IMG/VR virus record: IMGVR_UViG_3300034102_002177
Direction: 5' to 3' (one strand)
DNA from: a virus
Taxonomy: Duplodnaviria > Heunggongvirae > Uroviricota > Caudoviricetes
Length of the DNA stretch: 64,000 nucleotides
Part shown: piece by piece, positions 6,352 to 51,364 of the stretch
Layout of the letters: each line of letters opens with the position of its first letter
Numbering within the stretch: position 1 is the stretch's first letter
The notes under the pieces: generated by a model
What the model saw: only the letters and a program-made list of their open reading frames with translations
What the model was told of the DNA's origin: nothing
Database searches by the model: none
Made by a program: the position numbers and the translations under genes

Positions 6352-7206
6352 ATGGATTTAAAAGAAGTTGCTAACGAAATACGTGAGATAATTGCTCAGA
6401 AGCAAAAAGAACTTAAACTAACGTTTGAGGAGGATTCTCATAAGTATACGATGATAGATGTTGATGGTAAATTAAGAGATGATTTCCCATCTGTTTCAAA
6501 AGTTCTTAAATCATTTTATGAGGAATTTGATTCTGAAGGAATTTCATACAGAAAGGCAAATGGAGATCCGTACGAACAACAACGACTATTAGAAGAATGG
6601 GCGGCGGCTGGTGAGTACTCGGTAAACATTGGATCTAGATCTCACTTCTTTTTAGAAGAACATACGTTAAATGAGTTCGGTCTTGAGAAAGAATTGAGAC
6701 AACCTGTTTTTAAATGTGATGCCGAACAAATCGTTAAAAGTGATACGATGATAGTGGCCGGCAAAAAATACATTGATCTTCTTAAAGAACGAGGATGTGT
6801 ATTATTAGATACTGAAATTGTATTGGGTCACCCTGAATTAGGATATACAGGACAACCTGATAAGGTTTGGTTAGTTATTGGTGTTAATGGTCAAGTTGGT
6901 ATACTTATCACGGATTGGAAAACAAACAAACCAAAAAACTTTGAAACCAATAAGTTTACAAAGCAAATGAAGACACCTCTTGATCACTTACCGGATAATG
7001 CTCTTGGTCACTATAAAACACAACTTCCACTATATGGTAAGTTATTGTTAAAAATGTTAGAGGGATCTAAATATGAGAATATCCAACTATTAGGATGTAT
7101 TATTGTTCTAATAACAGAAGAAAGAGAGTATGTTGAACATAGAGTTGATAAAAAGACAATTAATACTATCTTAGAGATGAATGTTAAACAATATTTGAAA
7201 AAATAA
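6352..7206 (+). CDS. PD-(D/E)XK-family nuclease (lambda-Exo/YqaJ/Cas4-like recombination exonuclease)
   Basis: GQPDKVW ... ILITDWKT gives PD-x(n)-DxK. Sits between primase and Mre11/Rad50 genes. Confidence 0.5.
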   Translation: MDLKEVANEIREIIAQKQKELKLTFEEDSHKYTMIDVDGKLRDDFPSVSKVLKSFYEEFDSEGISYRKANGDPYEQQRLLEEWAAAGEYSVNIGSRSHFFLEEHTLNEFGLEKELRQPVFKCDAEQIVKSDTMIVAGKKYIDLLKERGCVLLDTEIVLGHPELGYTGQPDKVWLVIGVNGQVGILITDWKTNKPKNFETNKFTKQMKTPLDHLPDNALGHYKTQLPLYGKLLLKMLEGSKYENIQLLGCIIVLITEEREYVEHRVDKKTINTILEMNVKQYLKK

Positions 7207-7225
7207 ACTTTAAAAATTATATTAA

Positions 7226-7438
7226 ATGGATGATATTTTAAAACCAAGAATTGACCTTAAACAACAACCAACGGTTACTTGTGAGGATTGTGGGTCAAAG
7301 TACTTCAAAGAAGTGGTATTATTAAAAAAAGTACCAAAGTTATTAACCGGAAGTTCAGAAGATACGATCGTACCATTCCCAACATATATGTGTAATTCAT
7401 GTGGGTTTGTTAATGAGGACTTCATATTATTTGATTAA
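7226..7438 (+). CDS. Small zinc-ribbon protein
   Basis: CEDCGS ... CNSCGF pair of CxxC. Confidence 0.4.
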   Translation: MDDILKPRIDLKQQPTVTCEDCGSKYFKEVVLLKKVPKLLTGSSEDTIVPFPTYMCNSCGFVNEDFILFD

Positions 7439-7582
7439 AATGGAAATTGGAAAAATGACAATAAGTGAGGTATATCCTCATTTGAAAACTATATCGCTTG
7501 CGTATGGTTTAAGATTAAACAGATCAAAAGATTTTAAGTTAGCAAGAATTATTTTAGCAAACCTTTATAGTAGAGAATTAGT

Positions 7583-7828
7583 ATGACATACAAAGAATTT
7601 TACATTTGGTTAGAAGGATTTATGACCAATAGAAGTTGGACAGTTATTCAACAATCCGACATTGAGGGAATTCAGAATAAAATGAAAGAAGTTAAAGAAG
7701 TGAACCAACCTGGTATGTTTGATCCTAACAGAATACCAATACCGGTTAACCCATTTCCTAAAACTGATGACCCATTTAAACCACCATTTGAAATATATTG
7801 CAGAGACAAAACACAATTAAATGATTAA
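7583..7828 (+). CDS. Hypothetical protein
   Basis: 81-aa ORF in the operon run. Confidence 0.3.
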   Translation: MTYKEFYIWLEGFMTNRSWTVIQQSDIEGIQNKMKEVKEVNQPGMFDPNRIPIPVNPFPKTDDPFKPPFEIYCRDKTQLND

Positions 7829-8600
7829 GAAAATAGTACACTTTTCTGATTTACATATCAGATTATTTAAAGATCACGATTTATACCGATCAATATTAGA
7901 GACGGCAATTAAACAATGGAAAGAATTAGAACCTGACCGTATAATATTTACGGGTGATTTAGTTCATTCTAAAAACCAAATAACACCCGAACTTATTGAG
8001 ATTGTTGCTTGGATTTTAACTGAATGTTCATTCATTGCTAAAACTGTTATTATACCTGGTAATCACGACTTTTTGGTAAACAATACCGAAAGATTAGATG
8101 CTCTTACTCCTATTATTAATTCTTTGAGGAATGAGGATATTGTGTACTACCGAGATAGAGGTGTGTATGAGGATGAGAATATTAGTTGGTGTGTCTATTC
8201 GCAATATCAGGCTAATATCCCACCGGATTTGAATGTTGCCACGGGAATTAAAATTGGTTTATTTCACGGACCAATTCAAGGAATGAAAACCGATCTTGGT
8301 TTTGATTTTGGAGAAGAAGCATATGATGTGGATAAGTTCAACGGACTTGAAGCCGTACTATGTGGTGATATACATAAAAGACAGGAATTCAAATTCAAAA
8401 CCGGTAAAGGTTATATGATTGGAAGCCCTATTCAACAGAATATTGGAGAAAGTATTGGCAAACATGGATATGGTATTTATGACATTGTCAAAAAAGAATA
8501 TTCGTATGTTGATCTACCGAACCCAAAACCATTTTTAAAGTTCTCCATAAAATCATTTGAAGACATTGAAAATGGAACAGAAAAACTCCAAAATATTTAG
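7821..8600 (+). CDS. Mre11/SbcD-like metallophosphoesterase nuclease (T4 gp47-like)
   Basis: Calcineurin-fold motifs HFSDLHI, FTGDLVH, PGNHDF, FHGP, CGDIHK. Adjacent to a Rad50-like gene. Confidence 0.75.
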   Translation: MIKKIVHFSDLHIRLFKDHDLYRSILETAIKQWKELEPDRIIFTGDLVHSKNQITPELIEIVAWILTECSFIAKTVIIPGNHDFLVNNTERLDALTPIINSLRNEDIVYYRDRGVYEDENISWCVYSQYQANIPPDLNVATGIKIGLFHGPIQGMKTDLGFDFGEEAYDVDKFNGLEAVLCGDIHKRQEFKFKTGKGYMIGSPIQQNIGESIGKHGYGIYDIVKKEYSYVDLPNPKPFLKFSIKSFEDIENGTEKLQNI

Positions 8601-9186
8601 TAAGGAAACGATTCAGTTAGTAATGGCATTTTGTGAATCCCAAGAAATAAAAGACGTAAACAACTTTATGTATTTATGTTTCAAACAAGGGTTTGATATA
8701 AAGAAATATGGATTTTTAGGGGAAACCGAACAAGAAAAAATTGTAGAAGTTCCTGTTGAAATTATCAAAGAGGTTGAGAAAATAGTTGAGGTTCCTGTTG
8801 AAAAAGTTATTACAAAAATAGAATACATACGTGACCAAAATAACGAAAACGAACTTGTTGAAAAAATTACCAAGTTGGAAAATGAAATGTCTAAAAAGGA
8901 TGAAGAATTAGACGAACTTAGACGTAATTTAGACATAATTGTAGACAAACCACCGGTTGAAGTAATCAAAGAGGTGGAGAAAATCGTTGAAGTCATTAAA
9001 GAGGTTGAGAAACCGGATGATAGGATGGAAATGTTACAAGAAACATTACTTACCTTAAGAAAAGAACTTCAAACAAAAAACGAAAGAATAAAAGAATTAG
9101 AAAAAATAAACCGAGATCTTGAGAACATCAGTTCAAATAAAGGGGCTGTTTTTCTTAGGGGATCAAATTTAAATAATAGATTATGA
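8557..9186 (+). CDS. Coiled-coil protein carrying EKIVEVPVE/IKEVEKIVEV repeats. The start is probably an internal Met (8572 or 8623)
   Basis: Repeats at nt 8737-8806 and 8961-9010. The rest is heptad-like and E/K-rich. Confidence 0.5.
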   Translation: MKTLKMEQKNSKIFSKETIQLVMAFCESQEIKDVNNFMYLCFKQGFDIKKYGFLGETEQEKIVEVPVEIIKEVEKIVEVPVEKVITKIEYIRDQNNENELVEKITKLENEMSKKDEELDELRRNLDIIVDKPPVEVIKEVEKIVEVIKEVEKPDDRMEMLQETLLTLRKELQTKNERIKELEKINRDLENISSNKGAVFLRGSNLNNRL

Positions 9187-9536
9187 TAGAATTATTAATT
9201 TGGATGATTGTGGCATATGGTATGACCACAATATTAGTGTATGGATCAATCTTTAATGGGTTGAGAAATAATATTAAAAAAGCGGGTAGTAATGAAGGAT
9301 GGTTCTTAACTAGACCATTTTTTAAATTTGTATCTGACTTAATTTCTTGTATGTTATGTACGGGAACATGGGTAGGGTTTTTCCTATCATTAACTTTTTA
9401 TTCACCAATTTCACATTTTATTGGACTTAATGAATATTATTCCGTATTCTTTGATGGAATGTTATCCGCAGGTTCAGTTTGGGGGATTAATGCAATAATT
9501 GAATGGTTTGAAGAAAATAGACCGAGTAATAAATAA
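9183..9536 (+). CDS. Small integral membrane protein (CxxC in a TM segment, DUF1360-like)
   Basis: Three hydrophobic helices. CMLCTGTW motif. Confidence 0.45.
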   Translation: MIELLIWMIVAYGMTTILVYGSIFNGLRNNIKKAGSNEGWFLTRPFFKFVSDLISCMLCTGTWVGFFLSLTFYSPISHFIGLNEYYSVFFDGMLSAGSVWGINAIIEWFEENRPSNK

Positions 9537-9553
9537 TAACAAATAATATAACA

Positions 9554-9796
9554 ATGGGAAAAGCGGCAAAGGCTCACAGAGCAAAAGTGGAAAAACGAAA
9601 CAGAAAAATTGCACAAGACAAATACGCAATGAACAAGGCAATTGAACGAATGTTTGAGGCACGAAAAATGGCAATGGAAAATGAAGAAAACCTAAATGTT
9701 GAATTAAACGGACAAGAATTAGGGTTTCAAGTTGTTGAAGAAGTAGAGGTTAATGAATCACAAGTTGAAGACCAAGTTTCTGAGTTACAAAAATAA
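9554..9796 (+). CDS. Small basic/acidic bipartite protein
   Basis: 80-aa ORF, Lys/Arg-rich N-terminus, acidic C-terminus. Confidence 0.35.
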   Translation: MGKAAKAHRAKVEKRNRKIAQDKYAMNKAIERMFEARKMAMENEENLNVELNGQELGFQVVEEVEVNESQVEDQVSELQK

Positions 9797-9798
9797 AA

Positions 9799-12174
9799 AT
9801 GGATTTATTCAATCCCCCAAAATTATTCAATTACAATATAATGATAAAAGATTTAGATTTTTCTACGTTTGAAAACCCATCAATTCAAGTTGTATGGGAG
9901 GACTTACCTGAAAATTTCACACAAGATAAGATTAAGAGTGTTAAACATTATTTCCAAAAGAAATATAACACGACTAATGTGAATGTATTAACTAAGGTTA
10001 AAAACATTGAGAAAGATAGTATGCAAACTATTGATGTATCGGTGAATGTTGCTGACGTTAATTACCAACTTGACTTGTTGAAAAAATTCTTGGAATCAAA
10101 AGGTTATGACGGTCACTTGGATGACGTTTTAGGGATCAACAGAATGGTTGAGAACAAAATGCAAGAAGAGGAAGTTGAAACCACACAATTCAAGAAATGG
10201 TATATCAGAAACATAGAGTTCTCTAATTTCTTATCATATGGTGAGAACCAAAGATTGGATTTTGATAAGTGTGATGGTGTTGTGGTTGTAGAATCAAACC
10301 CACCAAACTTTGGGGGAAAAACAGTTCTTACGGTGGATTTGTTAATGTTCTTATTTTTTAATGAGACGACAAAAACTACTAAAGCGGAGGAAATCTTCAA
10401 CCGATTTACTGACAAAAATAAAGTAACGGTTAAAGGTGAGATCACAATTGATGGTGAGGAGTACATCATAGTTAGAAACATTGAAAGAAAACTTTCTAAG
10501 AAAGGTGAATGGAATGTTAAGACAGAATTGGACTTCTTCAAAAAATTGGCTGACGGTAGTTTACAAAACTTCACTGGAGAACAAAGAAGGGAAACTGAGG
10601 CGTTCATTAAGAATTCCATCGGTACAAAGGAAGATTTCCTTATGACCATTTTAACTACGGCAACAAACCTTGAGGAATTGTTGGAATCAAAACCAACGGC
10701 AAGAGGTCAAGTGTTGTCTCGTTTTATGGGACTTGAGTTTTTGAAACGGAAAGAGGAAGTTGCAAAAGAAGTTTATTCGGACTTCAACAAGTCAAAATTA
10801 TCTAACATTTATAATTCTGAAATGTTGAAAACAGATAATGAAACTTATGTAACTCAAATCGCTGAATTAAATGATCAAATTGAGGTATTAAAAACAGAGA
10901 TTGGTGATGTTGATGAGAAAATCCTGAAAGGGAAAGAGTATCGTGACGATATGTTGAAGAAAAAACACGGAGACATTGACCATGAAATCAGTTTGATGAA
11001 CCCGACTAAAACTCAGGAGGAAATTGATTCTTTGGAACGAGAGAAAACAGGGTTTCAAAAGAAATCAGAAGAACTTAAAGTTATTGAACCAAAAGAATTT
11101 TATCACGAAGACCAACATGATAAAATTAAAGAGGAGTATAACGATACCTTTAAGTTGAAAATTGAGCTTGATACACAGATCAATGAGATTGAGAAATTGA
11201 AGAGTTCTGTGAGTGATGGTATCAAATGTGAGCACTGTGGAATTGAGTTAATGAACGCTTCAATAACTCAACAAAAAATTAGTCAACTTGCCGTTTATAT
11301 CACGCATAGAGACCAAAAAACAACCTTAATGACGGATTTATCCGGCAGAGAACAACAGTTCGTACAACTTAAAAAAGATTTTGATGAGTATGAAAAAAAC
11401 AAACTTATCAAAGAAAAATATGAGTTAAGTATTGAAAGTTGTGATTTGAAGATTGGGACCTTAAAAGGTAAATTGGATAGTTGGGGTAAAGTTCAGGATA
11501 AAATCAAAGAGAACACTAAAATTGATGAAATGTTGATTAAGGCGGATCTAAGATTGGATGAACTTGAAAACATTAAAAAGAATAAAAACTCTCAAATTTC
11601 AAATAATGAATATCAAATCAAATCATTTAACGAGAAGATTGTTAATAACGAAGGATTAATTGATAAGATTAAGTTAGAAGAGGGTAGAGAAAAAATTTAC
11701 AAAATTTATTTAGAGGCGTACGGTAAAAATGGGTTATCAAAAATTATTATGAAAACAATGATGCCACTGATTAACTCAGAACTACAAAGATTGATGGAAG
11801 ATAGTTGTTACTTCAAATTAGAAATTAGAATTAATGACAAAAATGAAGTTGAATTTTTGATGGTCGATAATAGCACTGGTATTGAAAAATTAATGGTTTC
11901 GGGATCAGGTTATGAAAGAACAATTGCGTCTTTAGCGTTACGTTCGGTACTAAGTAAAATTTGCACATTACCGAAACCAAATATTGTAGTATTTGATGAG
12001 GTATTTGGAAAAATATCAAATGATAACCTTGAGATGGTATCTGAGTTCTTCCAAAAAATTAAAGAGTATTTTGGTAAAGTGTTCCTAATTAGCCACAACC
12101 CAATGATTAGTCAGTGGGGCGATACTATTGTAAAAATTGAAAAGGAAAATAATGTATCAAGAGTGTTAAATTAA
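9799..12174 (+). CDS. Rad50/SbcC-like SMC-family ATPase (T4 gp46-like)
   Basis: N-terminal P-loop NPPNFGGKTVL. About 450 aa of coiled coil with a CxxC hook-like CEHCG. C-terminal signature MVSGSGYERT and Walker B VVFDEVFG. Confidence 0.8.
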   Translation: MDLFNPPKLFNYNIMIKDLDFSTFENPSIQVVWEDLPENFTQDKIKSVKHYFQKKYNTTNVNVLTKVKNIEKDSMQTIDVSVNVADVNYQLDLLKKFLESKGYDGHLDDVLGINRMVENKMQEEEVETTQFKKWYIRNIEFSNFLSYGENQRLDFDKCDGVVVVESNPPNFGGKTVLTVDLLMFLFFNETTKTTKAEEIFNRFTDKNKVTVKGEITIDGEEYIIVRNIERKLSKKGEWNVKTELDFFKKLADGSLQNFTGEQRRETEAFIKNSIGTKEDFLMTILTTATNLEELLESKPTARGQVLSRFMGLEFLKRKEEVAKEVYSDFNKSKLSNIYNSEMLKTDNETYVTQIAELNDQIEVLKTEIGDVDEKILKGKEYRDDMLKKKHGDIDHEISLMNPTKTQEEIDSLEREKTGFQKKSEELKVIEPKEFYHEDQHDKIKEEYNDTFKLKIELDTQINEIEKLKSSVSDGIKCEHCGIELMNASITQQKISQLAVYITHRDQKTTLMTDLSGREQQFVQLKKDFDEYEKNKLIKEKYELSIESCDLKIGTLKGKLDSWGKVQDKIKENTKIDEMLIKADLRLDELENIKKNKNSQISNNEYQIKSFNEKIVNNEGLIDKIKLEEGREKIYKIYLEAYGKNGLSKIIMKTMMPLINSELQRLMEDSCYFKLEIRINDKNEVEFLMVDNSTGIEKLMVSGSGYERTIASLALRSVLSKICTLPKPNIVVFDEVFGKISNDNLEMVSEFFQKIKEYFGKVFLISHNPMISQWGDTIVKIEKENNVSRVLN

Positions 12175-13267: not shown

Positions 13268-14068
13268 ATGAAGGACAAAAACTTAGGAATACCTATTAAC
13301 CAAGACGAAGTTTACCACTACCTTAAAGACATCAGAAAAATCAAAGTAATGACTCCCGACAGAGAGCGTGAGTTAGCCGTTAAGATGAAATCAAATGAGA
13401 TTTCAGACAAAGAGAGAAAACAAATTGAGGAAGAACTTCTTATAGGTAACTTAAGATTTGTCATTACTGTGGCGAAGCAGTACCAAAACCAAGGTTTAGA
13501 TTTACAAGATCTAATTGCTGAGGGTAATTATGGTTTGATGAAGGCAATCAAAAACTTTGATTGGGGAAAAGACCTTAGATTTATATCTTATGCGGTATGG
13601 TGGGTTAAACAATCAATTATTCAATCGTTAAATGATAATGCGAGAACAATAAGATTACCGGTGAATGTTGTTCAAGATCTTCATAGAGCAAAGAAAGAGT
13701 TGGAACAGACAGGTAAGAAGTTGGAAGACAAATTTTCCACATTACCATCAATCATTGATTTGGACATGAGAATTAATGATGAGGGAGATACTCTTATTGA
13801 TATGATTGCGAATCAAGATGCTGAGGCTCCTGATGCTTCTTTTCATACAAAAGATATTCTAAAAGAAAAAATGATGACCTTGTTGGATGTTTTAGATGAT
13901 CGTGAGAAGTCAATCATTGGGGATTACTTTGGGTTAACAGGAACTCCAAGAACTTTAGAGGACATTGGTAGTGATTTTGGTCTCACAAAAGAAAGAGTAC
14001 GTCAGATTAAAGAAAAGGCGTTAAGACGATTAAGAAACGATAGTTCGGAACTATTTGATTATTTGTAA
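13268..14068 (+). CDS. Sigma-70 family (RpoD/RpoS-like) RNA polymerase sigma factor
   Basis: Region 2: LIAEGNYGLMKAIKNFD. Region 3/4: TLEDIGSDFGLTKERVRQIKEKALRRLR. Confidence 0.8.
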   Translation: MKDKNLGIPINQDEVYHYLKDIRKIKVMTPDRERELAVKMKSNEISDKERKQIEEELLIGNLRFVITVAKQYQNQGLDLQDLIAEGNYGLMKAIKNFDWGKDLRFISYAVWWVKQSIIQSLNDNARTIRLPVNVVQDLHRAKKELEQTGKKLEDKFSTLPSIIDLDMRINDEGDTLIDMIANQDAEAPDASFHTKDILKEKMMTLLDVLDDREKSIIGDYFGLTGTPRTLEDIGSDFGLTKERVRQIKEKALRRLRNDSSELFDYL

Positions 14069-20785: not shown

Positions 20786-20959
20786 ATGGAAACTTTAGAA
20801 AAAATTAAAACGTTGACAGAAGAATTAAATGTTGATGTAACTAAATTCTACGGTGGTAATAAAAGTGCTGGAACACGTGCTAGAAAAACATCACAAGAAT
20901 TGAAAGCGTTGTTACAAACACTTAGAGGTGAGATTTTGGAAACAAGAAAAAATGACTAA
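20786..20959 (+). CDS. Histone H1-like (Hc1/Bacteroidetes histone-like) small DNA-binding protein. Below the ORF-track length cutoff
   Basis: 57-aa ORF translating to ...KFYGGNKSAGTRARKTSQELKALLQTLRGEIL, matching the GNKAAGTRARKASLEL core of bacterial H1-like proteins. Confidence 0.5.
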   Translation: METLEKIKTLTEELNVDVTKFYGGNKSAGTRARKTSQELKALLQTLRGEILETRKND

Positions 20960-21140
20960 TATTAATACAATATATTTATTTGTTTTTGTTTTCTCGGCAA
21001 TCTTATTGGTGAGAACAACGTTCAAATTTATTATCTCCTTATTACAAACAAATCCTGAAAGAATGGTTTTAAGTAGTAAGGAGATTTTATTCAACGGTTT
21101 AGCATTAAGTTATATAATAACATATTTAATACAAGTATAA
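20952..21140 (+). CDS. Small hydrophobic membrane protein
   Basis: MTNINTIYLFVFVFSAILLV TM segment. Confidence 0.3.
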   Translation: MTNINTIYLFVFVFSAILLVRTTFKFIISLLQTNPERMVLSSKEILFNGLALSYIITYLIQV

Positions 21141-22664: not shown

Positions 22665-23594
22665 ATGGAAGATTATTATAGTGTTTTGGGGGTTAATGAA
22701 AGTGCGACCCAAGAGGAGATTAAAAGAGAATATAGAAAGTTAGTAAAAGAGAACCATCCTGATAAAGGAGGGGATGAAGAGAAGTTTAAAAAAATCTCAA
22801 CGGCTTATGATACAATAGGTGACGAAACTAAACGTAGGCAGTACGATCAACAAAAAAACAATCCATTTGGTAACATGGGTGGATTTGGTGGAGCATCTAT
22901 GGAAGAAATGATGAACAGTATGTTTGGTGGTAATCGTAGACAACAAACTAGAGTTCACGATACTGTTATTGATGTTCATATTGGTGTGATAGAATCTTAT
23001 ATGGGTGGAAAGAAAACAATGACATATAATAGAAAGGATAAATGTAATCCTTGTAATGGAACAGGTGGTGAAAAGAAAGTATGTCACACTTGTGGAGGAC
23101 AAGGATATACAGTTAAACAAATGGGTTCAGGTATGTTCATTCAAATTGTACAGGTTGCTTGTGGAACTTGTAATGGTGTTGGAAAAATAACAACCGCCGC
23201 TTGTTATGCTTGCGGTGGACAAGGGGCTAAAAACACAATAAACACAATAGAAGTACAATTACCACATGGTATTGATGATGGTCAATTTTTAAGGTTACAA
23301 GGACTTGGTGATTACAGAAATGGGGGTTACGGTAATTTAGTTGTGAGAATAAGAACGATAAATGAGGGAAATTTTGAAAAGGATGGACCTAATTTAATAT
23401 ATAATGCATTTTTAAATATTGGAGATTTTCAAAAAGGGGATTTTGAGGTACCTCATCCCGATGGATCAATAAGTATTAAGTTTCCTAATAATATAGATAC
23501 CTCAATGCCGTTAAGAGTTAAGGGTAAAGGGTTCAAATATCAACCACAAGGTGATTTATTAATTAATCAATATTTAAAATATAATAGAGGTTAG
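22665..23594 (+). CDS. dnaJ: DnaJ (Hsp40) type-I co-chaperone
   Basis: J-domain with HPD (ENHPDKGG), G/F-rich linker, four CxxCxGxG zinc repeats. Confidence 0.85.
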   Translation: MEDYYSVLGVNESATQEEIKREYRKLVKENHPDKGGDEEKFKKISTAYDTIGDETKRRQYDQQKNNPFGNMGGFGGASMEEMMNSMFGGNRRQQTRVHDTVIDVHIGVIESYMGGKKTMTYNRKDKCNPCNGTGGEKKVCHTCGGQGYTVKQMGSGMFIQIVQVACGTCNGVGKITTAACYACGGQGAKNTINTIEVQLPHGIDDGQFLRLQGLGDYRNGGYGNLVVRIRTINEGNFEKDGPNLIYNAFLNIGDFQKGDFEVPHPDGSISIKFPNNIDTSMPLRVKGKGFKYQPQGDLLINQYLKYNRG

Positions 23595-24714: not shown

Positions 24715-26778
24715 ATGGAATTAGTAAGAATTTTATCAAAAGTTATTAAAGAAAACGTAAATATTAAAAAAATATTATTAGAATATCCCGAATCAACGGT
24801 TAAAAAACTATTGGATAAGTTTTCTGGAGAAACTGATGATACTGAGGATGAAATCAAGAAAACAATATCTGATTTTGAAAGATTTAAAGGTGGTTTTGCT
24901 ATAGATGAAAAAAATGAACTTAAACAACTTAACGACGAGTTAAAAACTTTAGAACCGTCTTCTCAAGAGTATATAGATTTACAAAATAGAATTCGTGATT
25001 TAAACAAAAGAGTACAAGATACCTTAGACATATTCAAGTACGACTATGAGAGTTTAAAAAATCTGACCGCAGATAAATCCACAAAACAAAAAACCAAAAA
25101 AGATCTTGAAAGTATAGCTCAAGAATTTGTTACCAAACATAAAGGTGCTGACTTACAATTAGTGAAAACAAATATTAAAAAATATTTTGAGTTAAAAACT
25201 TTGTTCCCTGAACAAAAATTATTCAAAAGAGAGATAACTGAATTAACACCATCTCAGTTGAGTGATTTAGTTGGTAAATTCTTTTCTAAATTTAATGAAA
25301 GAGGGGAAAATGAGTTAACAAAAAGGATGACGGAAAAGTTTTCTAAAGAAAATCCGGATGATGATCCACTTACCGTAATATTACCAAGGGTTAAAAGATT
25401 TGTACATCACTTTGAATTAATTCCATTAAACGCTAAATTAAGTGCGTTTATGACATTTGATGACTTTGAACATTTAGTTGATGGTTACACACCAATGGGT
25501 GAAGATGAATATAGTTTACCTGAAATTGATTTAGATGACGTTGATATTGCGTATGAAGATGATGACATATTAATTTTTGCTCCTGATGAAAAACAAAAAT
25601 GTATTAACATTAGAAAAAAACACGCTCCTGATAGAAAATGGTGTACATCTTGGGAAGGATCAAGTAATTACTACTACAATTATAGATTAAATCAAAACTT
25701 AACATTATATTATGTTATTAGTAAGAATTTACCTGAATCTGATGTGAACTATGCGGTTGTTGTTCTTGTTGATAGATGGGGAGGAATGAGATTGGCGGAT
25801 GGTACCAATTCAGGTAAATATGCTGGTGGACAAGAAATTGATTGGTCTGAAATTATTAGAAAGGTCCCTACATTACGAGATAAGAAAGAATATCTTGAAC
25901 CAAAACCATTTAGTAATGAGGATCAAGAAAAAATGCAGAGATACAAATCTTATAACTTAAAAACTGATGACCCAATACAAGAGTTAGGTAGTGTTGAAGA
26001 AGTTGAATTATGGATAGAATTAAGAGGTCCTGACTTTAGTCATATGAGTAATGGTGATGTAATATTTGGTAAATTACCTGAAGAATTACAAAGAAAATAT
26101 ATTGGTTTAGGAACTGAGTTAAGTGGTGGGATGGTTAAAGTCCTTAAAGGTGGGGCACTAGGTTATTATGTGTCAAAGAAAAAAGAGAAGTTACTTACAA
26201 AGACATTAAGTCAGTTAACTTCAAGTGATATTGAAACAATTAAGACCTTAGAAATGAGACCTTATTTAAGAGAGTTAAAAAGAAAATTCTCTAAGGAGTT
26301 AGTTTCTAAGGATATGGGATCATATGTTCAATTAGAATACCCTAAAGATGATGCGTCTAAATATGTTGCTCTATTTGGTTTTGAGGAATATTTTGATTCT
26401 ATTCCTGATAATGTTGAATTTATTAACATAGAGAATAAATCAAATGATGTGATTGCGGAGAAACTACCTGAATCAATAGGAAGATTTACTGAACTTAAAA
26501 CATTGGTAATTGATAATTATATTAAATCAATACCTGAAAGTATTGGAAATTGTAGACAATTGTCATTCTTAAATTTAACTAATAATAGTCAATTGGATAA
26601 ATTGCCGGGATCTATTTCTAAATTAACTTGTTTGGAGTTCTTCTCAATTATGGGATCAGATCCAAACATTAAAATACCTAAAAAATTAAAGGATTATATG
26701 ACACCGGATGAAGATTTTTTCTTACTACACTTCCCTGAAAATATGAAAAAACACTGTACCGGAATGGTAGGGTTCTAA
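24715..26778 (+). CDS. Member of the KWCT-core paralog family fused to C-terminal leucine-rich repeats
   Basis: Core DDDILIFAP...RKWCTSWEG...LTLYYVISKN aligns with the 41903, 47763 and 55853 proteins. C-terminal LPESIGRFTELKTLVIDNYIKSIPESIGNCRQLSFLNLTNN are LRRs. Confidence 0.6.
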   Translation: MELVRILSKVIKENVNIKKILLEYPESTVKKLLDKFSGETDDTEDEIKKTISDFERFKGGFAIDEKNELKQLNDELKTLEPSSQEYIDLQNRIRDLNKRVQDTLDIFKYDYESLKNLTADKSTKQKTKKDLESIAQEFVTKHKGADLQLVKTNIKKYFELKTLFPEQKLFKREITELTPSQLSDLVGKFFSKFNERGENELTKRMTEKFSKENPDDDPLTVILPRVKRFVHHFELIPLNAKLSAFMTFDDFEHLVDGYTPMGEDEYSLPEIDLDDVDIAYEDDDILIFAPDEKQKCINIRKKHAPDRKWCTSWEGSSNYYYNYRLNQNLTLYYVISKNLPESDVNYAVVVLVDRWGGMRLADGTNSGKYAGGQEIDWSEIIRKVPTLRDKKEYLEPKPFSNEDQEKMQRYKSYNLKTDDPIQELGSVEEVELWIELRGPDFSHMSNGDVIFGKLPEELQRKYIGLGTELSGGMVKVLKGGALGYYVSKKKEKLLTKTLSQLTSSDIETIKTLEMRPYLRELKRKFSKELVSKDMGSYVQLEYPKDDASKYVALFGFEEYFDSIPDNVEFINIENKSNDVIAEKLPESIGRFTELKTLVIDNYIKSIPESIGNCRQLSFLNLTNNSQLDKLPGSISKLTCLEFFSIMGSDPNIKIPKKLKDYMTPDEDFFLLHFPENMKKHCTGMVGF

Positions 26779-33466: not shown

Positions 33467-33649
33467 ATGGGATTCAATAAAAGAATTTTCACAAAAGAAC
33501 TTATTATAAGACACATTTATGATATTGAAAGATATCTAAGTGTTGATGCGGCATTTTTGAGAGATGATTTCTCAAGAGATGTTTATAGAATGCATAATGA
33601 GGGAAAATCAAAAGAAGAAATAATAAAATACATAAATGAAAACAAATGA
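33467..33649 (+). CDS. Small hypothetical protein
   Basis: 60-aa ORF abutting glnA-like gene. Confidence 0.3.
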   Translation: MGFNKRIFTKELIIRHIYDIERYLSVDAAFLRDDFSRDVYRMHNEGKSKEEIIKYINENK

Positions 33650-34770
33650 AAATTAAGTTAGAGTATGTTTGGCTTGATGGATACAAACCAGAACCAAACC
33701 TTAGAAGTAAAGTTAAAATTGTTGAAAGTGAAGTTCCTATGGAATTAAAAGATATTCCGGTATGGAATTTTGATGGATCATCCACTTCTCAAGCGGAAAC
33801 AGGTAATTCGGATCGTCTTTTAAAACCTGTTAGACAATATACAACCCATGGATTCCCATTCATAAATGATACTGTGTATGTGTTATGTGAAGTATTAAAT
33901 CCTGATGGTACACCACACGAATCAAATAAAAGATCTCAGATTGGAGATAACTTTGAAGATCTTTGGTTTGGTTTTGAACAAGAATACTTTATTCGTGAAG
34001 AAATTAACGGAAACATTTTAGGACATAAAAGAAACATTCTTAAAGGTCAGGGTGAATATTATTGTGGTGTGGGTCATAATGTTGTTGGTCGTGATTTTGT
34101 TGAAGAACATTTAGAAATGTGTTTAAACTACGGAATTGATATTACCGGTATAAATGCTGAAGTTGCTTTAGGCCAGTGGGAATATCAAGTATTTTCAAAA
34201 GGAAAACATAAAGGAGGAGATGATCTCTGGATGACTCGTTACTTCTTATTTAAGATGGGGGAAAAATACGGATATCATATTGAACTACATCCAAAACCAT
34301 TAACTCACGGAGAATGGAATGGATCAGGACTCCACACAAATTTTTCAACAGATATGATGAGAAACGAGGGGAATGAGAAATATTTTATGGCTTTGTTTAA
34401 TGCATTTGAATCAAGACACCAAGATCATATTAAAGCGTATGGGTCCAACAACAACCTTCGTTTAACTGGTGAGTATGAAACTCAATCAATTGATAAGTTC
34501 AGTTGGGGTGTGTCTGATCGAGGAGCGTCAATTAGAGTTCCACAAGATACCGCAAAAGAATGGAAAGGTTATGTTGAAGATCGTAGACCTGGATCAAACG
34601 CGGATCCATACAAAATTATTCGTGAGATTGTTAAATCATTAGACACCACTAAACAAATCTATGAAATGAAAGATATAATGACTAGATTTGTTGATATGGA
34701 TGGTTTAAGTGGTAAGTACAATGCCATATCAAATGAAGAATTATTAAAAGAATATAGAGAGGAGGAATAA
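33646..34770 (+). CDS. Glutamine synthetase, type II (GSII)
   Basis: N-terminal LEYVWLDG, GFEQEYF, GLHTNFST, RGASIRVP. All are hallmark GSII motifs. Confidence 0.85.
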   Translation: MKIKLEYVWLDGYKPEPNLRSKVKIVESEVPMELKDIPVWNFDGSSTSQAETGNSDRLLKPVRQYTTHGFPFINDTVYVLCEVLNPDGTPHESNKRSQIGDNFEDLWFGFEQEYFIREEINGNILGHKRNILKGQGEYYCGVGHNVVGRDFVEEHLEMCLNYGIDITGINAEVALGQWEYQVFSKGKHKGGDDLWMTRYFLFKMGEKYGYHIELHPKPLTHGEWNGSGLHTNFSTDMMRNEGNEKYFMALFNAFESRHQDHIKAYGSNNNLRLTGEYETQSIDKFSWGVSDRGASIRVPQDTAKEWKGYVEDRRPGSNADPYKIIREIVKSLDTTKQIYEMKDIMTRFVDMDGLSGKYNAISNEELLKEYREEE

Positions 34771-40882: not shown

Positions 40883-40909
40883 GGGAGGGGTTAACCTTCC
40901 CTTTTTTTA
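40883..40909. terminator. GGGAGGG-GTTAA-CCTTCCC hairpin plus TTTTTTT, between convergent genes
   Basis: 7-bp stem with T7. Confidence 0.65.
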
Positions 40910-41451
40910 TTTAGTTTTTCTAAATAAGATTTAACATTTGCTTTTGCTTTAAATAAATTTGATTTTGAGGTCCCATCACTAATTCCTAATTCATCGGCAA
41001 TTTCTTGGTGAGACATATTTTCAAAATAATACATATTAAAAATTCTTTTATATGATGGTGATAAACTTTCCATCGCATCTTTAATATCTGACATAGAAAA
41101 AATGGGTTCTTCATTTGGTATATCCTCAAGACCTAAATCTTCATAACCAAAATCAACATCTTTTCTTTTTGGAGATCTTTTTTCTTTTCTTAATTCATCA
41201 ATAATTGTATTTTTTATAATACGTTGAATCCAACCTTCAAGGCTACCTGAACCATCGTACATAGACATTTTTTGGTGAACTTTAATAAACCCTAATTGAC
41301 AAAAATCATTTGCCTTTTCTATATCACCATTTGCATATCTTAAACAAATTTGTTTAAATAGTTTTGGGTATAATCTTTTATATTCAAGATCAAAATTAAA
41401 ACCTTCATTTAATAGGTGTTGATATTGTAACTCAGTCAAGATAATTTTCAT
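40891..41451 (-). CDS. ECF-type (sigma-24 family) sigma factor, orphan with no adjacent anti-sigma
   Basis: Region 2 YPKLFKQICLRYANGDIEKANDFCQLGFIKV. Region 4 LSPSYKRIFNMYYFENMSHQEIADELGISDGTSKSNLFKAKANV. Confidence 0.7.
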   Translation of the reverse strand: MKIILTELQYQHLLNEGFNFDLEYKRLYPKLFKQICLRYANGDIEKANDFCQLGFIKVHQKMSMYDGSGSLEGWIQRIIKNTIIDELRKEKRSPKRKDVDFGYEDLGLEDIPNEEPIFSMSDIKDAMESLSPSYKRIFNMYYFENMSHQEIADELGISDGTSKSNLFKAKANVKSYLEKLNKKREG

Positions 41452-41492: not shown

Positions 41493-41900
41493 TTGATTAT
41501 GGAAAAAATATTATATATTGTTCGTGGAATTCCAGGATCCGGTAAATCCACATTTGCCAAATCTTTAGGTGGTACTCACTTTGAAACTGATATGTTTTTT
41601 ATGAAAGACGGTGAGTATAAATTTGATATGTTTAAACTTAAAGAGGCTCATAAATGGTGCCAGGATAGTGTTTATAGTGCAATGCTATTAAATCATACTG
41701 CGTTATTAAACAACGTAATTGTTGTTTCAAACACATTCACTCAAGAATGGGAAATGAAACCATATTTTGAAATGGCGGAATATTTTGAATATAAAATTTT
41801 TTCCATAATTGTGGAAAACAGGCACGGTGGTATTAACGAACATAATGTACCTGAAGAAACATTAACCTCAATGAGAAATCGGTTTGAAATAAATTTGTAG
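41493..41900 (+). CDS. P-loop polynucleotide kinase-like protein (T4 Pnk N-terminal domain-like)
   Basis: LYIVRGIPGSGKSTFAKSL Walker A. Resembles the T4 Pnk N-terminus ILTIGCPGSGKSTWAREF. Confidence 0.6.
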   Translation: MIMEKILYIVRGIPGSGKSTFAKSLGGTHFETDMFFMKDGEYKFDMFKLKEAHKWCQDSVYSAMLLNHTALLNNVIVVSNTFTQEWEMKPYFEMAEYFEYKIFSIIVENRHGGINEHNVPEETLTSMRNRFEINL

Positions 41901-42828: not shown

Positions 42829-43482
42829 ATGAAATTTGATAAAATATTAACAACAGGTAGAGTGTGGGTCACATCGGATCCACATTACAACCATAAAAAC
42901 ATTTGTAGAGGGGTAACGAATTGGAGAACCCAAGATGGTGAGATTCCTATTAATAGTACAAGAGATTTTCACACAATAGATCTAATGAATAATGTTTTAG
43001 TGGATAACATAAACTCAAAAGTTGGACAGAACGACACATTAATTATATTGGGTGATGTTGCGTTCGGTGGTTTTGAAAGTATTAGAATTTTCTTGGATCG
43101 TTTGGTGTGTAAGAATATTCATTTAGTTATGGGTAATCATGATCAACACATAAGAAACAATAGAGATAACATCAAAGATATGTTTTTATCTGTGAGCGAT
43201 TACCTCCAAGTTAATATTGACGGTGCCGATTTTGTTATGACACATTATCCATTTGAAAGTTGGAATGGTCTTAATAAAGGTGTTATACACCTTCACGGAC
43301 ACGTTCACTTACCTGCAAGTAAAAAGTGGGGTAAAGGTAAACGATTAGATGTTGGTGTTGATGGTAACAATCTATCACCATATAGTATAACTGAAATTGT
43401 ACATATGATGGATAAACGAGATATCGTTCCTGAAATGGAAGGTGATCACCATTTAGATGATTTAATTGGGGTTATTGGATAA
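42829..43482 (+). CDS. Calcineurin-like metallophosphoesterase (lambda-PPase or CthPnkp-phosphoesterase type)
   Basis: DPHYNH, ILGDVAFGG, GNHDQ, LHGHVH. Confidence 0.75.
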   Translation: MKFDKILTTGRVWVTSDPHYNHKNICRGVTNWRTQDGEIPINSTRDFHTIDLMNNVLVDNINSKVGQNDTLIILGDVAFGGFESIRIFLDRLVCKNIHLVMGNHDQHIRNNRDNIKDMFLSVSDYLQVNIDGADFVMTHYPFESWNGLNKGVIHLHGHVHLPASKKWGKGKRLDVGVDGNNLSPYSITEIVHMMDKRDIVPEMEGDHHLDDLIGVIG

Positions 43483-46310: not shown

Positions 46311-47444
46311 ATGGAAAATTTAAATAGTGTATGTTATGTTGGTGTGATCGGAGAGATATTACCAATAGATGGAGCGGATAACATTGAACTTGCATTGGTT
46401 GGTGGTTGGCAAGCCATTACTAAGAAAGGTGAATATAGTGTTGGTGATAAGGTTGTTGTTGCAACTACCGATGCGGTAATCCCTGTTGAATTATCTGATT
46501 TAATGGGCGTAACTAATTACCTAAGAAAAGGTCAAAGAGTTCGCACCGTTAAACTTCGTAAAGTTTACTCTGAGTGTTTGTTAATACCATTCAAATACTT
46601 GGCACCAAGGTCTTTGGAGAACAATGTAAATGAAGGTCACGACATGATGGAACTGTTAGGTATCACTAAATATGAACCACCAGTTAAGATGGTTGAGATG
46701 AGTGTTGGTGGAAGAAAATTCAAATACCACCAAAACCCGAACTTCCACATTTACTACAAATTCCCAAATATGAAGAACGTACCTGATATGTTCAATGAGG
46801 AGGATGAAGTATGTATCACTCGTAAGTTACACGGAACCAATGCTCGTTACGGTATTGTGAGAAAGAAAAAACTTTCAATCCTTGATAAGATTAAAGGGTG
46901 GTTTGGTAATCAATGGGTTGGTTACGAATACGTTTATGGATCCCACAACGTTGAGAAGGGATCTGACTCTCAAGGTTTTTATGCAACTGATGTGTGGAAA
47001 ACAGTTGCGGAAAAATATGATATCCGTAAAAAACTTTGGGATCACGTTAAAGATACTTTTGATCCTAATGATGTTGGTTCAGGATTTATCATCTATGGTG
47101 AAATCTATGGACACGGAATACAAAAGAATTACGACTATGGTTTAACTGAAATCCGTTTTGCGGGATTTGACGTTGAGGTTGATGGATCTTATGTTGATAA
47201 CATTTACCAATCAACTCATTTTAAATGTTTAGGTTTAGAAGAAGTTGAAACTTTATATTCAGGTCTTTGGTCAAAAGAAGAACAAGATAAATATGTGTTT
47301 AATAACAACATTCAAGGAACTAAAGTTCCTCACGAAGGTATTGTTGTAAAATGTTTATCTGGTAATCGTCATAAGATTGGAAAAGTAATCAACCCTGATT
47401 ATTTAATTTACGGTGAAAAAAATAACGTAGGTGACTCCCATTAA
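46311..47444 (+). CDS. RNA ligase, Rnl5-type (DraRnl/NgrRnl-like)
   Basis: Motif I as KLHGTN (KxHGxN variant characteristic of DraRnl), motif IV EGIVVK, motif V HKIGKV. Confidence 0.65.
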   Translation: MENLNSVCYVGVIGEILPIDGADNIELALVGGWQAITKKGEYSVGDKVVVATTDAVIPVELSDLMGVTNYLRKGQRVRTVKLRKVYSECLLIPFKYLAPRSLENNVNEGHDMMELLGITKYEPPVKMVEMSVGGRKFKYHQNPNFHIYYKFPNMKNVPDMFNEEDEVCITRKLHGTNARYGIVRKKKLSILDKIKGWFGNQWVGYEYVYGSHNVEKGSDSQGFYATDVWKTVAEKYDIRKKLWDHVKDTFDPNDVGSGFIIYGEIYGHGIQKNYDYGLTEIRFAGFDVEVDGSYVDNIYQSTHFKCLGLEEVETLYSGLWSKEEQDKYVFNNNIQGTKVPHEGIVVKCLSGNRHKIGKVINPDYLIYGEKNNVGDSH

Positions 47445-47762: not shown

Positions 47763-48863
47763 ATGGGAATAAAACATTTAATTCAGGAAAATCCTAATAT
47801 GGATATAAATTTGGTTCGTTTAATATCTAAACTTGATCCAAGCAAAACAAATAAACTAACACCATTTATGGTAAAAGTTTTTAAAAAAAGAATGGTTGAT
47901 TTTGAAAAAGAAATCACTCAAGAGGAAGGTATTTATGGATTAAGATATGAATATGTTAATAGTAAGATGAGTGATGCAAGTGGTTTTGAAAAATTAATAT
48001 TAACTTGGGTTATAGATCAATTTAGAGCGGAAAATATTGAAATCTTAAGAGAATTTAATGAGGTTTTGGATAAAGGTTTAGTGGATCAAAATGACATATC
48101 TAAATACGAAAATTTTGAAGAGATTACAAATCAATTGTCGGTTGCTAGAACAAAAGATTTATTGAAGAAATCTAGAAAAGAAATCTCTGTTGTCTATGAA
48201 GATGATGAAATTATGATGCTTAAACCATTATCTTTTGAGGCATCTTTGAAATATGGTGCTGGAACAAAATGGTGTACAGCAATGAAAAATGAACCTGAAT
48301 ATTTTTATAGATACTCTAAAAATGGTATTTTAATCTATCTTATTAATAAAGAAACCGGTAGAAAATTTGGGTGTCATTCGGAAAGATATAATGATAATAG
48401 AGTTCAAATCTTTAATGAGATTGATCAGGTTATTGATTCTTTCCATATGGGTTTACCATATGAAAAATTAACTATCTTAATGGATTTAATGGATTCAGAA
48501 AAATATGGTGTTAATTCAGAGTTATTTAGTGAAGAGGAAAAAAGTAAGTATGGGTTAAGAGTGAATAAATATTCGGTAGATGAGGTGATGGATATGCCAA
48601 CTGAAGAAATGCCAGTGAATGAAGAATTACCAAGATTGATGCCAAGATTGAACAGACGAATCCCAATTACGGATCAAGAAATGAGAATAATGGAAGACCC
48701 AATGGTAGAAGAGCAAGGACCGATAGAAATTGAATACAATATGGCTGTACCTGATAGAATGTTAATGAGAGAGATTCAAAAAGAAATTGATTCCATTATG
48801 GTTCTTGATCGTGCGGGAGCTTTCGCTCATCTTGAAAATGAAGAGGGTGACACATTACCATGA
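47763..48863 (+). CDS. KWCT-core paralog family protein, copy 2
   Basis: EIMMLKPLSFEASLKYGAGTKWCTAMK...GILIYLINKE. Confidence 0.55.
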   Translation: MGIKHLIQENPNMDINLVRLISKLDPSKTNKLTPFMVKVFKKRMVDFEKEITQEEGIYGLRYEYVNSKMSDASGFEKLILTWVIDQFRAENIEILREFNEVLDKGLVDQNDISKYENFEEITNQLSVARTKDLLKKSRKEISVVYEDDEIMMLKPLSFEASLKYGAGTKWCTAMKNEPEYFYRYSKNGILIYLINKETGRKFGCHSERYNDNRVQIFNEIDQVIDSFHMGLPYEKLTILMDLMDSEKYGVNSELFSEEEKSKYGLRVNKYSVDEVMDMPTEEMPVNEELPRLMPRLNRRIPITDQEMRIMEDPMVEEQGPIEIEYNMAVPDRMLMREIQKEIDSIMVLDRAGAFAHLENEEGDTLP

Positions 48864-49507: not shown

Positions 49508-51364
49508 ATGGGAAAAATAATTGGAATTGACTTAGGTACAACAAACTCTTGTGTGGCCGTTATGGAAGGGAATGAACCGGTAGTTATTACAAATAACGAA
49601 GGTAAACGAACAACGCCATCTGTAATCGGATTCATTAAAGATGGTGAAAGAAAGATTGGGGATCCGGCTAAACGACAAGCGGTAACCAATCCTGAAAAAA
49701 CCGTACATTCAATTAAACGATTTATGGGAACAAGTTTTACTGAATCTAAAAATGAGGTAAAGAAAGTTCCTTATAAAGTTGTAAAAGGAGATGGTGGATC
49801 ACCAAGAGTGGATATTGATAAACGACAGTATTCTCCGCAGGAACTTTCCGCAATGGTTTTACAAAAAATGAAACAAACTGCTGAGGATTATTTGGGTGAG
49901 ACGGTTACTGAGGCGGTTATTACGGTACCAGCGTATTTTAATGATGCTCAACGACAGGCAACCAAAGAAGCGGGTGAGATTGCGGGTTTGGAAGTAAAAC
50001 GTATCATTAATGAGCCAACAGCGGCGGCATTAGCATATGGTTTAGATAAAATGTCTAAAGATATGGTAGTGGTTGTGTTTGACTGTGGTGGTGGTACACA
50101 CGATGTTTCTATTCTTGAATTAGGTGATGGTGTATTTGAAGTATTGTCTACTGATGGTGATACTCACTTAGGTGGTGATGACTTTGATCAGGTTATTATT
50201 GAATGGTTAGCAAATGAATTCAAAGATGAGAATGGAATTGATGTGACCAAGGATCCGATGGCGTTACAACGTTTACGAGAAGCGGCAGAAAAGGCAAAAG
50301 TTGAATTATCTTCAACCTCATCAACGGAAATTAATTTACCGTATTTGATGCCGGTAGATGGGATGCCAAAACACTTGGTTAGAACTTTATCAAAATCTAA
50401 ATTTGAACAACTGGCAGATTCATTAATCAAACGAACTATTGAACCTTGTAAGACAGCGTTGAAAAATGCTAAGATGGATGTGTCTGATGTTGATGAAATT
50501 ATCTTGGTTGGAGGTACAACAAGAATTCCGGCAATTCAAGAAGCGGTTAAACAATTCTTTGGTAAGGAACCATCTAAAGGTGTTAATCCTGATGAGGTAG
50601 TTGCTTTAGGTGCGGCGATCCAAGGTGGTGTACTTGCTGGTGATGTTAAAGATGTCTTATTATTAGATGTGACTCCATTATCTTTAGGTATTGAAACTAT
50701 GGGTGGAGTTATGACTAAATTGATTGATGCTAACACCACGATCCCAACTAAAAAATCTCAGGTGTTCTCAACGGCAGTAGATAATCAACCAACAGTTGAG
50801 ATCCACGTACTTCAGGGAGAACGAGCAATGGCAAAAGATAATAAAACCATTGGTAAGTTCAATTTAGATGGTGTTCCACCAGCGATGAGAGGTGTTCCAC
50901 AAATTGAGGTTACGTTTGATATTGATGCGAATGGTATTATCAATGTTTCTGCAATGGATAAAGGTACAAACAAACAACAAACAATTCGTATCGAAGCGTC
51001 CTCAGGTTTATCAAAAGAAGAGATTGAGAAAATGAAACAAGAAGCTGAGTTAAATGCCGAACAGGATAAAAAACTCAGAGAAGATGCTGAAGTTCTAAAC
51101 ACGGCTGATGGTACAATCTTCCAAACTGAGAAGTCAATCAAAGATTTGGAAGATAAATTAACTGAAGAACAAAAGAGTGAACTTGATGGATTACTTGGAA
51201 CGTTAAAAGAATCTTACGCAAAAAAAGACATTGAGAAGATTAATCAAGATATTGAAAATCTTAATAGTCAGTTCCACCATATTAGTCAATCATTGTACGA
51301 ACAAACTACAACTGAAGAAGGTAATGATGCTCCGTCTGACGTTGAATTTGAAGAAGTACTTTAA
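49508..51364 (+). CDS. dnaK: Hsp70 chaperone DnaK
   Basis: [47 protein letters not shown], full substrate-binding and lid domains. Variant [10 protein letters not shown] in place of canonical DLGGGTFDVS. Confidence 0.9.

Follow-up and report, generated by a model that had tools for sequence, protein, structure and literature searches.

Two chaperone genes, a full-length bacterial-type dnaK (Hsp70) and a short class-A dnaJ, are encoded in a 64,000-nucleotide stretch of viral DNA (IMG/VR record IMGVR_UViG_3300034102_002177, Caudoviricetes), referred to here as the window. This DNA belongs in all probability to an uncultivated jumbo phage from freshwater, with Bacteroidota as the predicted host. 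The reading favoured here, as probable and with some reserve, is that a captured DnaK and an older DnaJ provide a working Hsp70 system which uses the GrpE of the host. The data directly support the identity of the genes, the integrity of their domains, their phylogenetic origin, the purifying selection on them and the viral context.

The DnaK protein matches the HSP70 profile of Pfam from end to end (profile positions 1-598 of 599) and aligns with the solved structures of E. coli DnaK and human mortalin at an E-value of about 1e-221 (coordinates of the features are collected in Table 1). The catalytic and phosphate-binding motifs are all in place, namely GIDLGTT, the lysine of IKR, the glutamate of NEPTAA, DxGGGTxD and the interdomain linker. 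Mean identity to cellular DnaKs is 97% for the linker, 78% for the beta substrate-binding domain and 75% for the nucleotide-binding domain, but falls to 43% for the helical lid and 34% for the tail, the parts to which divergence is confined. The elements kept comprise the ATPase residues, the phosphate-2 motif DCGGGTHD, the linker, the substrate-binding beta domain and the EFEEV tail, and the ratio of nonsynonymous to synonymous substitution rates (dN/dS) is 0.04-0.10, with synonymous sites saturated across the clade. As judged from its sequence, the protein is functionally unmodified and under strong purifying selection, and ATPase and chaperone activity are predicted.

To trace the origin of the gene, DnaKs were compared from 80 cellular loci, which matched best among 185,579 species genomes, and from 80 loci of IMG/VR. 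The nearest cellular DnaKs in those genomes, of Flavobacteriales and other Bacteroidota, do not exceed 75% identity to that of the window, and identities within the viral clade range from 75 to 100%. By neighbour joining (613 columns, Kimura distances, 100 bootstraps), all 100 replicates unite the 81 viral DnaKs in one clade from which cellular sequences are absent; the next enclosing clades contain the DnaK of the huge phage LR745206 (55/100) and then DCGGGTHD-bearing sequences of Flavobacteriales/Bacteroidota. The simplest reading of this tree would be a single capture of dnaK, from a host of the Flavobacteriales type, which preceded the diversification of the clade and after which strong purifying selection acted. 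An earlier note, made from the letters of this DNA, had proposed phylogeny as a check; the viral clade proves to be nested within Flavobacteriales-type DnaKs. The same note had named a recently acquired, unmodified host operon as the alternative. That description suits the protein in so far as it is functionally unmodified, but not the 26 kb which separate dnaJ from dnaK, nor identities of no more than 75% to cellular proteins for DnaK and, for DnaJ, of no more than 42% to proteins of canonical length among the best 150 representatives.

The phosphate-2 motif had been singled out as a variant. Translation confirms its letters, and DCGGGTHD is present in all 80 IMG/VR viral DnaKs, in LR745206 and also in 30 of the 80 nearest cellular Bacteroidota DnaKs; both changes, L to C and F to H, are thus shared with cellular proteins, and the motif is no phage variant. 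Almost all of the cellular bearers are Flavobacteriales-type metagenome-assembled genomes (MAGs), and among the bearers are a chromosome of 3.4 Mb (CP051243.1) and contigs 963, 587 and 391 kb long. The motif, normal in cellular Flavobacteriales-type DnaKs, was inherited with the gene and is a lineage trait of the donor bacteria rather than a phage adaptation. In a column-by-column comparison the sole signature of the viral clade (at least 95% of viral and at most 5% of cellular sequences) is I59V, a conservative change. At the four cellular loci which lie closest to the viral clade the guanine-cytosine (GC) content is 45-47%, and these loci are flanked by genes for MscL, an MMPL transporter, a periplasmic binding protein, a patatin-like lipase and peptide deformylase. 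Mis-binned phage DNA was considered as an explanation for the DCGGGTHD-bearing cellular sister contigs and was ruled out by GC content and housekeeping neighbours. Five viral loci encode, no more than 5 kb from dnaK, a homologue of the peptide deformylase which lies beside the cellular dnaK of one Flavobacteriales MAG.

The DnaJ gives three Pfam matches, all above the curated cut-offs, to the J domain, the zinc-finger-like region and the C-terminal client-binding domains I and II (DnaJ_C, 8.3e-20, aa 102-301). By translation the zinc repeats read CNPCNGTG, CHTCGGQG, CGTCNGVG and CYACGGQG, and the Gly/Phe stretch (NPFGNMGGFGG...MFGG) is of about 30 residues, shorter than in the canonical DnaJs aligned with it; in the same alignment H31, P32, D33 and all eight cysteines are invariant. 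The gene identities proposed in the earlier note, a full-length Hsp70 and a type-I DnaJ with J domain, Gly/Phe region and four zinc repeats, are borne out by Pfam and translation. The closest solved structure is that of a bacterial DnaJ (6jzb, E 4.4e-40, residues 12-338 of 385 aligned), and the phage protein stops 5 residues past the last aligned position, with no C-terminal dimerisation extension; canonical DnaJs (373-377 residues) run 45-60 residues beyond C-terminal domain II, where the phage protein ends. This extension is typical of bacterial DnaJ and is not part of the class A definition.

An exhaustive search of 1.84 billion cluster representatives returned relatives of the DnaJ mostly 300-350 residues long and 34-49% identical. 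Among the best 150 representatives, the closest relative of canonical length (about 375 residues) is 42% identical and derives from a Neisseriaceae MAG. Relatives of the short form, judged from the ten clusters inspected, lie on metagenomic contigs only, of up to about 255-300 kb. The DnaJ clade within IMG/VR spans 96% to about 46% identity, and unsaturated pairs (relatives 78-96% identical) give a dN/dS of 0.06-0.11. Sequence comparison points to a divergent short form, much more diverged than DnaK and older in the phage; DnaJ also appears to be the more widespread of the two in these phages.

Two further IMG/VR contigs carry dnaJ and dnaK together, and the third member of the bacterial system was searched for in the same lineage. 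A hidden Markov model (HMM), built from the E. coli GrpE sequence and validated by its match to the Pfam-confirmed GrpE of LR745206, detected no GrpE among the open reading frames (ORFs) of the window, nor among those up to 5 kb away from dnaK or dnaJ at some 120 related viral loci. When IMG/VR was scanned, with pattern seeding, by means of a trimmed core alignment of five GrpE sequences, 57 contigs with GrpE were returned, many of 280-600 kb and the longest of 597 kb. None of the 57 falls in either the DnaK clade or the DnaJ clade, although contigs of 185-322 kb are represented there, a moderate negative in view of the pattern seeding. The phage lineage seems to be without the GrpE of Lak and LR745206-type megaphages.

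A 144-residue ORF directly downstream of dnaK (ORF144) had been proposed as a nucleotide-exchange factor, to be compared with GrpE by structure prediction. The protein has no match in Pfam (E<=0.01) or PHROG, the one coiled-coil match being below threshold, and its alignment to GrpE (PF01025) by hhalign has a probability of 0.15%. The AlphaFold2 model (mean predicted local distance difference test score, pLDDT, 80.6) is all-helical, with helices at residues 3-29, 38-87 and 106-141 and no C-terminal beta domain of the GrpE type. Foldseek finds nothing in the PDB at E<=0.001, the best match being 3kdq, of unknown function, at E 0.3, and neither GrpE nor BAG, HspBP1 or Hsp110 is among its matches. 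GrpE and BAG were rejected as identities for ORF144 on the results of Pfam, hhalign, iterative HMM searches, AlphaFold2 and Foldseek. The same iterative searches place ORF144 downstream of dnaK in 6 of 80 viral loci, those of the closest strains; it is 69% identical where DnaK is 94% identical, and its dN/dS is 0.12-0.21. ORF144 is a real gene and not an identifiable exchange factor, and the proposal made for it falls for want of any likeness in sequence, profile or fold.

A self-contained three-part system, in which ORF144 would be a new kind of exchange factor and DCGGGTHD an adaptation of the phage ATPase, is accordingly very improbable. The ORF does lie on the same strand, 90 nt after dnaK, it is under purifying selection and predicted to be helical, and BAG-type exchange factors are three-helix bundles. 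However, similarity to GrpE or BAG is lacking in each of the comparisons above, the gene is missing from 74 of the 80 viral dnaK loci and its evolution is far quicker than that of DnaK, the motif is also cellular, and a sigma-70-like site separates the two genes. This site (51404-51432, in the gap of 89 nt) consists of TTGACT, a 17-nt spacer and TATACT, with 10 of 12 matches; such sites number 21 in the region against 14.4 +/- 4 in shuffled sequence, only slightly more. ORF144 may be transcribed on its own, and it is probably not part of the chaperone system.

The earlier note had also allowed for the contig being host chromosomal DNA. That the window is bacterial DNA or a chimeric assembly, with the chaperones as ordinary host genes, is barely credible, even though the DnaK is of bacterial type and nearest to Bacteroidota and such contigs sometimes turn up in MAG bins. 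No ribosomal, tRNA or other housekeeping genes were found in the 64 kb and its 20-kb flanks, no tRNAs occur in the window, and most of its proteins are without a match in Pfam or PHROG (ORFans). The GC content of the window is 30% (27-36% along its length), as against 45-47% at the nearest cellular dnaK loci, and true cellular dnaK loci are flanked by quite different, housekeeping genes. Every cellular sequence falls outside the viral DnaK clade (100/100). Moreover, the gene order of the window was assembled identically and independently from several metagenomes. Contig JBFDJV010000956.1 overlaps the window from about position 17,155, and near-identical IMG/VR contigs carry DnaKs 94-99% identical to that of the window, a broader set (contigs up to 322 kb) being 75-90% identical. 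A host chromosomal origin is excluded for practical purposes.

Those proteins of the window which have matches are typical of large phages, and nearly all ORFs of at least 100 residues lie on the plus strand. The SbcC-like protein, a core protein of the replication type, has relatives of no more than 22-24% identity among 50,697 deposited phage records, all of them in jumbo or huge phages, and in a megablast comparison of 24 kb of the window with the phage records dnaK alone was matched, at 70%. The PHROG and Pfam scans revealed no capsid, terminase or tail hallmarks among the large ORFs of the window, so that the identification as a phage rests on context, IMG/VR membership and a match to the literature. 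The flanks, taken to 20 kb past the window ends, encode large ORFan proteins, one with weak SprB repeats. Past the 3' end lie genes for thymidylate synthase, ClpP protease and a 636-residue protein with a Por_Secre_tail sorting domain of the type IX secretion system, which in a phage protein is a Bacteroidota-specific signal.

The literature match is provided by the moraphages (Perez-Hernandez, Aldaroub, Barth and Aylward, Arch Virol 2025; PMC12619734), a group of 25 contigs of 200-307 kb, mostly from freshwater, whose predicted hosts are Bacteroidota (Flavobacteriia). Moraphages share a primase, an exonuclease subunit 2, a glutaredoxin, a sigma factor and several glycosyltransferases, and they also carry Hc1 (PF07432) and, in nine cases, a glutamine synthetase (PMC12619734). 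This characteristic gene content, with DnaJ and with or without DnaK, is all present in the window. For size and habitat the comparison is made with contigs rather than a complete genome: a DnaK identical to that of the window sits on a contig of 234,714 bp, the related IMG/VR contigs reach the length given above, and the samples appear, from MAG names with neighbouring Joint Genome Institute (JGI) sample numbers, to belong to a lake time series. The host signal of the window consists of the Flavobacteriales-type DnaK and the Por_Secre_tail protein. By gene content the phage is most likely a moraphage or a close relative, the marker genes for major capsid protein (MCP), large terminase subunit (TerL) and DNA polymerase B (PolB) lying outside the window and its flanks.

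Concerning the function of the two proteins, we infer a partnership of the phage DnaJ with the phage DnaK, a range of clients and the use of host GrpE. An ancestor of the phage clade would have taken its dnaK from a Flavobacteriales-type bacterium, and the protein would since have been kept almost unchanged in every functional element. The phage DnaJ would hand clients to the phage DnaK, and probably to host DnaK too, triggering ATP hydrolysis, and the raised Hsp70 capacity could serve phage protein folding, assembly or the remodelling of replication complexes during infection. For nucleotide exchange the most likely source would be the GrpE of the host, given that none is detectable in the phage and that the nucleotide-binding domain of the phage DnaK is about 80% identical to that of Flavobacteriales DnaK. 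Candidate clients are virion and assembly proteins, replication complexes and defence systems which depend on host chaperones. For a dedicated role in folding giant virion proteins, as put forward in the earlier note, the data speak neither for nor against.

Several points weigh against this picture. The DnaJ is without its C-terminal extension, and in E. coli DnaJ the loss of the extension by truncation yields a monomer with weaker autonomous chaperone activity. The GrpE negative covers pattern-seeded scans and a 64-kb window, not a complete genome, and the assignment to the moraphages is by gene content, the capsid, terminase and polymerase markers which define the group lying outside the window. 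Furthermore, DnaK is present in only 8 of the 25 moraphages and DnaJ is commoner (PMC12619734); the lineage can therefore do without DnaK, and the main partner of DnaJ may be the DnaK of the host.

A reading built on that last point, in which the phage DnaJ works essentially with host DnaK, as described for other phage J-proteins, while the phage dnaK merely adds dosage as an accessory gene and its product has no special tie to the phage DnaJ, is rather unlikely. It is consistent with the wider distribution of DnaJ in moraphages (PMC12619734), with the prediction that DnaJ co-chaperones of jumbo phages (group 2.2) recruit host Hsp70 (PMC7824862), and with the 26-kb separation and unequal depth of the two genes, DnaK being so much nearer to cellular proteins than DnaJ. 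On the other hand, dnaJ and dnaK co-occur on contigs of sufficient length, strong constraint acts on both, and the difference from a working phage pair is one of emphasis only.

The surroundings of the two genes contain further features. Between the stop of an ORF at 49117-49407 and the start of dnaK lies a perfect hairpin, ACTGACA-AAA-TGTCAGT followed by ATTTT (49409-49425), which may be a small terminator or an operator; reading of the sequence upstream of dnaK revealed no CIRCE-like heat-shock operator. An RNA-repair-like set of genes surrounds dnaK (41493-41900, 42829-43482, 46311-47444 and 52415-52999), comprising an AAA_33 kinase, a calcineurin-like phosphoesterase (Metallophos), an RNA ligase (PHROG 968) and HAD_SAK_2, a HAD domain known from RNA repair proteins of the 'Swiss Army Knife' kind. 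At 34 of 80 viral loci a homologue of HAD_SAK_2 is encoded no more than 5 kb from dnaK. A 687-residue leucine-rich repeat (LRR) protein is encoded two genes downstream of dnaJ (24715-26778), and an LRR-bearing protein is found 1.1-2.8 kb downstream of dnaJ in 29 of the 39 IMG/VR loci of the DnaJ clade, which may reflect a functional link or simply synteny. The LRR protein and a 366-residue protein three genes upstream of dnaK (47763-48863) share an unassigned domain of about 60-100 residues with the pattern '...YEDDxI...KWCT...YxYxY...' (pairwise E 4e-8).

Some of these neighbours bear on a role in counter-defence, whereby the phage chaperones would replace, titrate or mimic the host DnaJ and DnaK used by immune systems, for example NLR-related sensors which need DnaJ or chaperone-dependent toxin-antitoxin modules. 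Such a role has been proposed for moraphages with reference to the DnaJ-dependent bNACHT25 (PMC12619734). It would suit the diverged, phage-specific short form of DnaJ, the position of dnaK amid RNA-repair-type genes which may themselves serve counter-defence, with HAD_SAK_2 so often nearby, and the conserved LRR protein downstream of dnaJ. However, the gene linkage may be general synteny alone, and a functionally unmodified DnaK fits a working chaperone rather than a decoy; counter-defence is judged unlikely as the main role. A related suggestion, possible though doubtful, is that the short DnaJ represents a distinct, phage-specific class of J-protein with a specialised purpose, in a cycle either independent of GrpE or dependent on that of the host. 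If true, its purpose might be the neutralisation of DnaJ-dependent immune sensors, possibly together with the LRR protein, or the assembly of virion proteins.

The remaining features are listed in Table 1. Two sigma factors, one of them on the minority strand, suggest phage-directed reprogramming of the host RNA polymerase, and the glutamine-synthetase-like gene is an auxiliary metabolic gene.

Table 1. Features of the 64,000-nucleotide window, with positions counted from its first letter.
Feature	Position	Strand	Basis
dnaK, full-length bacterial-type Hsp70, 618 aa	49508..51364	+	Pfam HSP70 (PF00012) 1.9e-258
Phosphate-2 motif (10 residues, with DCGGGTHD) of the nucleotide-binding domain	50081..50110	+	translation
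Interdomain linker of DnaK	50654..50683	+	translation; 97-100% identical to cellular DnaKs
dnaJ, short class-A (type I) J-protein, 309 aa	22665..23594	+	ORF, Pfam
J domain with HPD, aa 3-61	22671..22847	+	Pfam DnaJ 6.2e-22; translation ...VKENHPDKGG...
Short Gly/Phe-rich linker, about aa 62-92	22848..22940	+	translation QQKNNPFGNMGGFGGASMEEMMNSMFGGNRRQQ
Zinc-finger-like region, four CxxCxGxG repeats, aa 127-187	23043..23225	+	Pfam DnaJ_CXXCXGXG 1.5e-9
ORF144, three-helix ORFan downstream of dnaK, 144 aa	51454..51888	+	ORF
Two sigma-70-family factors (regions 2 and 4)	13268-14068; 40891-41451	+; -	
Hc1 protein (chlamydial histone H1-like, PF07432), small gene	about 20787-20960		
Glutamine-synthetase-like gene	33646-34770		Gln-synt_C 7.9e-17, Gln-synt_N 6.1e-9
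DnaG-like primase	in window		Pfam/PHROG scans
SbcC-like exonuclease subunit	in window		PHROG 77
D12 and N4/N6 DNA methylases	in window		Pfam/PHROG scans
Thioredoxin and glutaredoxin (Trx/Grx)	in window		Pfam/PHROG scans
NUDIX; epimerase; two family-9 glycosyltransferases (GT9)	in window		Pfam/PHROG scans

The presence of a DnaK/DnaJ pair in this lineage is already known, having been published in 2025 (PMC12619734). Seven moraphage DnaKs form a clade inside Flavobacteriaceae, and the transfer is called 'recent' there (PMC12619734), whereas here DnaK is no more than 75% identical and DnaJ no more than 42% (canonical length, best 150 representatives) to cellular proteins. That paper is silent on DCGGGTHD, the short DnaJ architecture, the absence of GrpE and the downstream ORF. 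Phage Hsp70 systems show the extent to which large phages replace host proteostasis, and their Hsp70s give a signal for host prediction, here Flavobacteriales; for this lineage that has already been said in print. The present analysis adds modest refinements, namely a DnaK apparently unmodified and conserved since before the clade diversified, a truncated and diverged DnaJ and the apparent lack of GrpE, and these open no long-standing question.

Among other phages, DnaK chaperones are counted with the abundant ATPases of 353 huge-phage genomes (PMC8297831). By tblastn, 50 of the 50,697 deposited phage records match the DnaK, several of them short and probably bacterial fragments. The rarity which the earlier note had ascribed to such a pair is broadly supported by this count, but is tempered by the publication for the lineage and by the trio with GrpE in Lak phages and in LR745206 and LR756502. 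Several records, mostly short (2-17 kb, with a single one of 138 kb) and named as phages of Listeria, Enterococcus, Staphylococcus or Escherichia, hold adjacent dnaK and dnaJ genes; they look like bacterial DNA in a phage database, the similarity of their DnaK and DnaJ to those of the window being roughly that of the bacterial-annotated proteins in the same hit lists. The informative records are the LR-series huge phages of 480-735 kb, with DnaKs of 55-65% identity, and the Lak megaphages (49-50%), both groups also encoding class-A DnaJs 24-33% identical to that of the window. LR745206 (635 kb) resembles the window in its full-length DnaK with DCGGGTHD and differs in having a grpE-dnaJ pair, 12 kb from dnaK, whose GrpE is matched by Pfam at 7.7e-19. 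The two genes lie at 7178-8260 (-) and 9127-9825 (-) of the locus extracted from LR745206.1, and as the record is unannotated the DnaK/DnaJ/GrpE trio is not visible in the database entry. Its DnaJ is longer (360 residues) and keeps part of the C-terminal extension which the DnaJ of the window lacks, and synteny is absent, only DnaJ, DnaK and one methylase being shared within 42 kb, so that the two phages are not related at the level of the genome. LR756502 and Lak-A/C likewise encode GrpE, unlike the window; genomes of the Lak/LR type measure 540-735 kb, and Lak hosts are Bacteroidota. The full phage DnaK/DnaJ/GrpE trio is therefore already contained in published genomes.

With the bacterial DnaK-DnaJ-GrpE system the window shares a three-domain Hsp70 and a class-A J-protein, with catalytic and allosteric elements kept. 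It differs in that the genes are encoded by a virus and dispersed rather than in an operon, with no GrpE detected in the searches above and with a DnaJ which has a shorter Gly/Phe region and no extension. Rki of phage RB43, as far as it is cited in PMC12619734, is a J-domain co-chaperone acting on host Hsp70. In this protein and in those of the group 2.2 jumbo phages an HPD-bearing J domain is predicted to drive Hsp70, as in the window. Unlike those J-proteins, that of the window has almost the whole class-A architecture, including the zinc module and the client-binding domains, and is accompanied by an Hsp70 of the phage's own. The Hsp70s of eukaryotic viruses (mimivirus-type, and the Hsp70h of closteroviruses) are of eukaryotic type or highly derived and serve virion assembly or movement. 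They too are virus-encoded ATPases of the Hsp70 family, but the one described here is a bacterial DnaK, from a genome which also encodes bacterial sigma factors and a DnaG-type primase.

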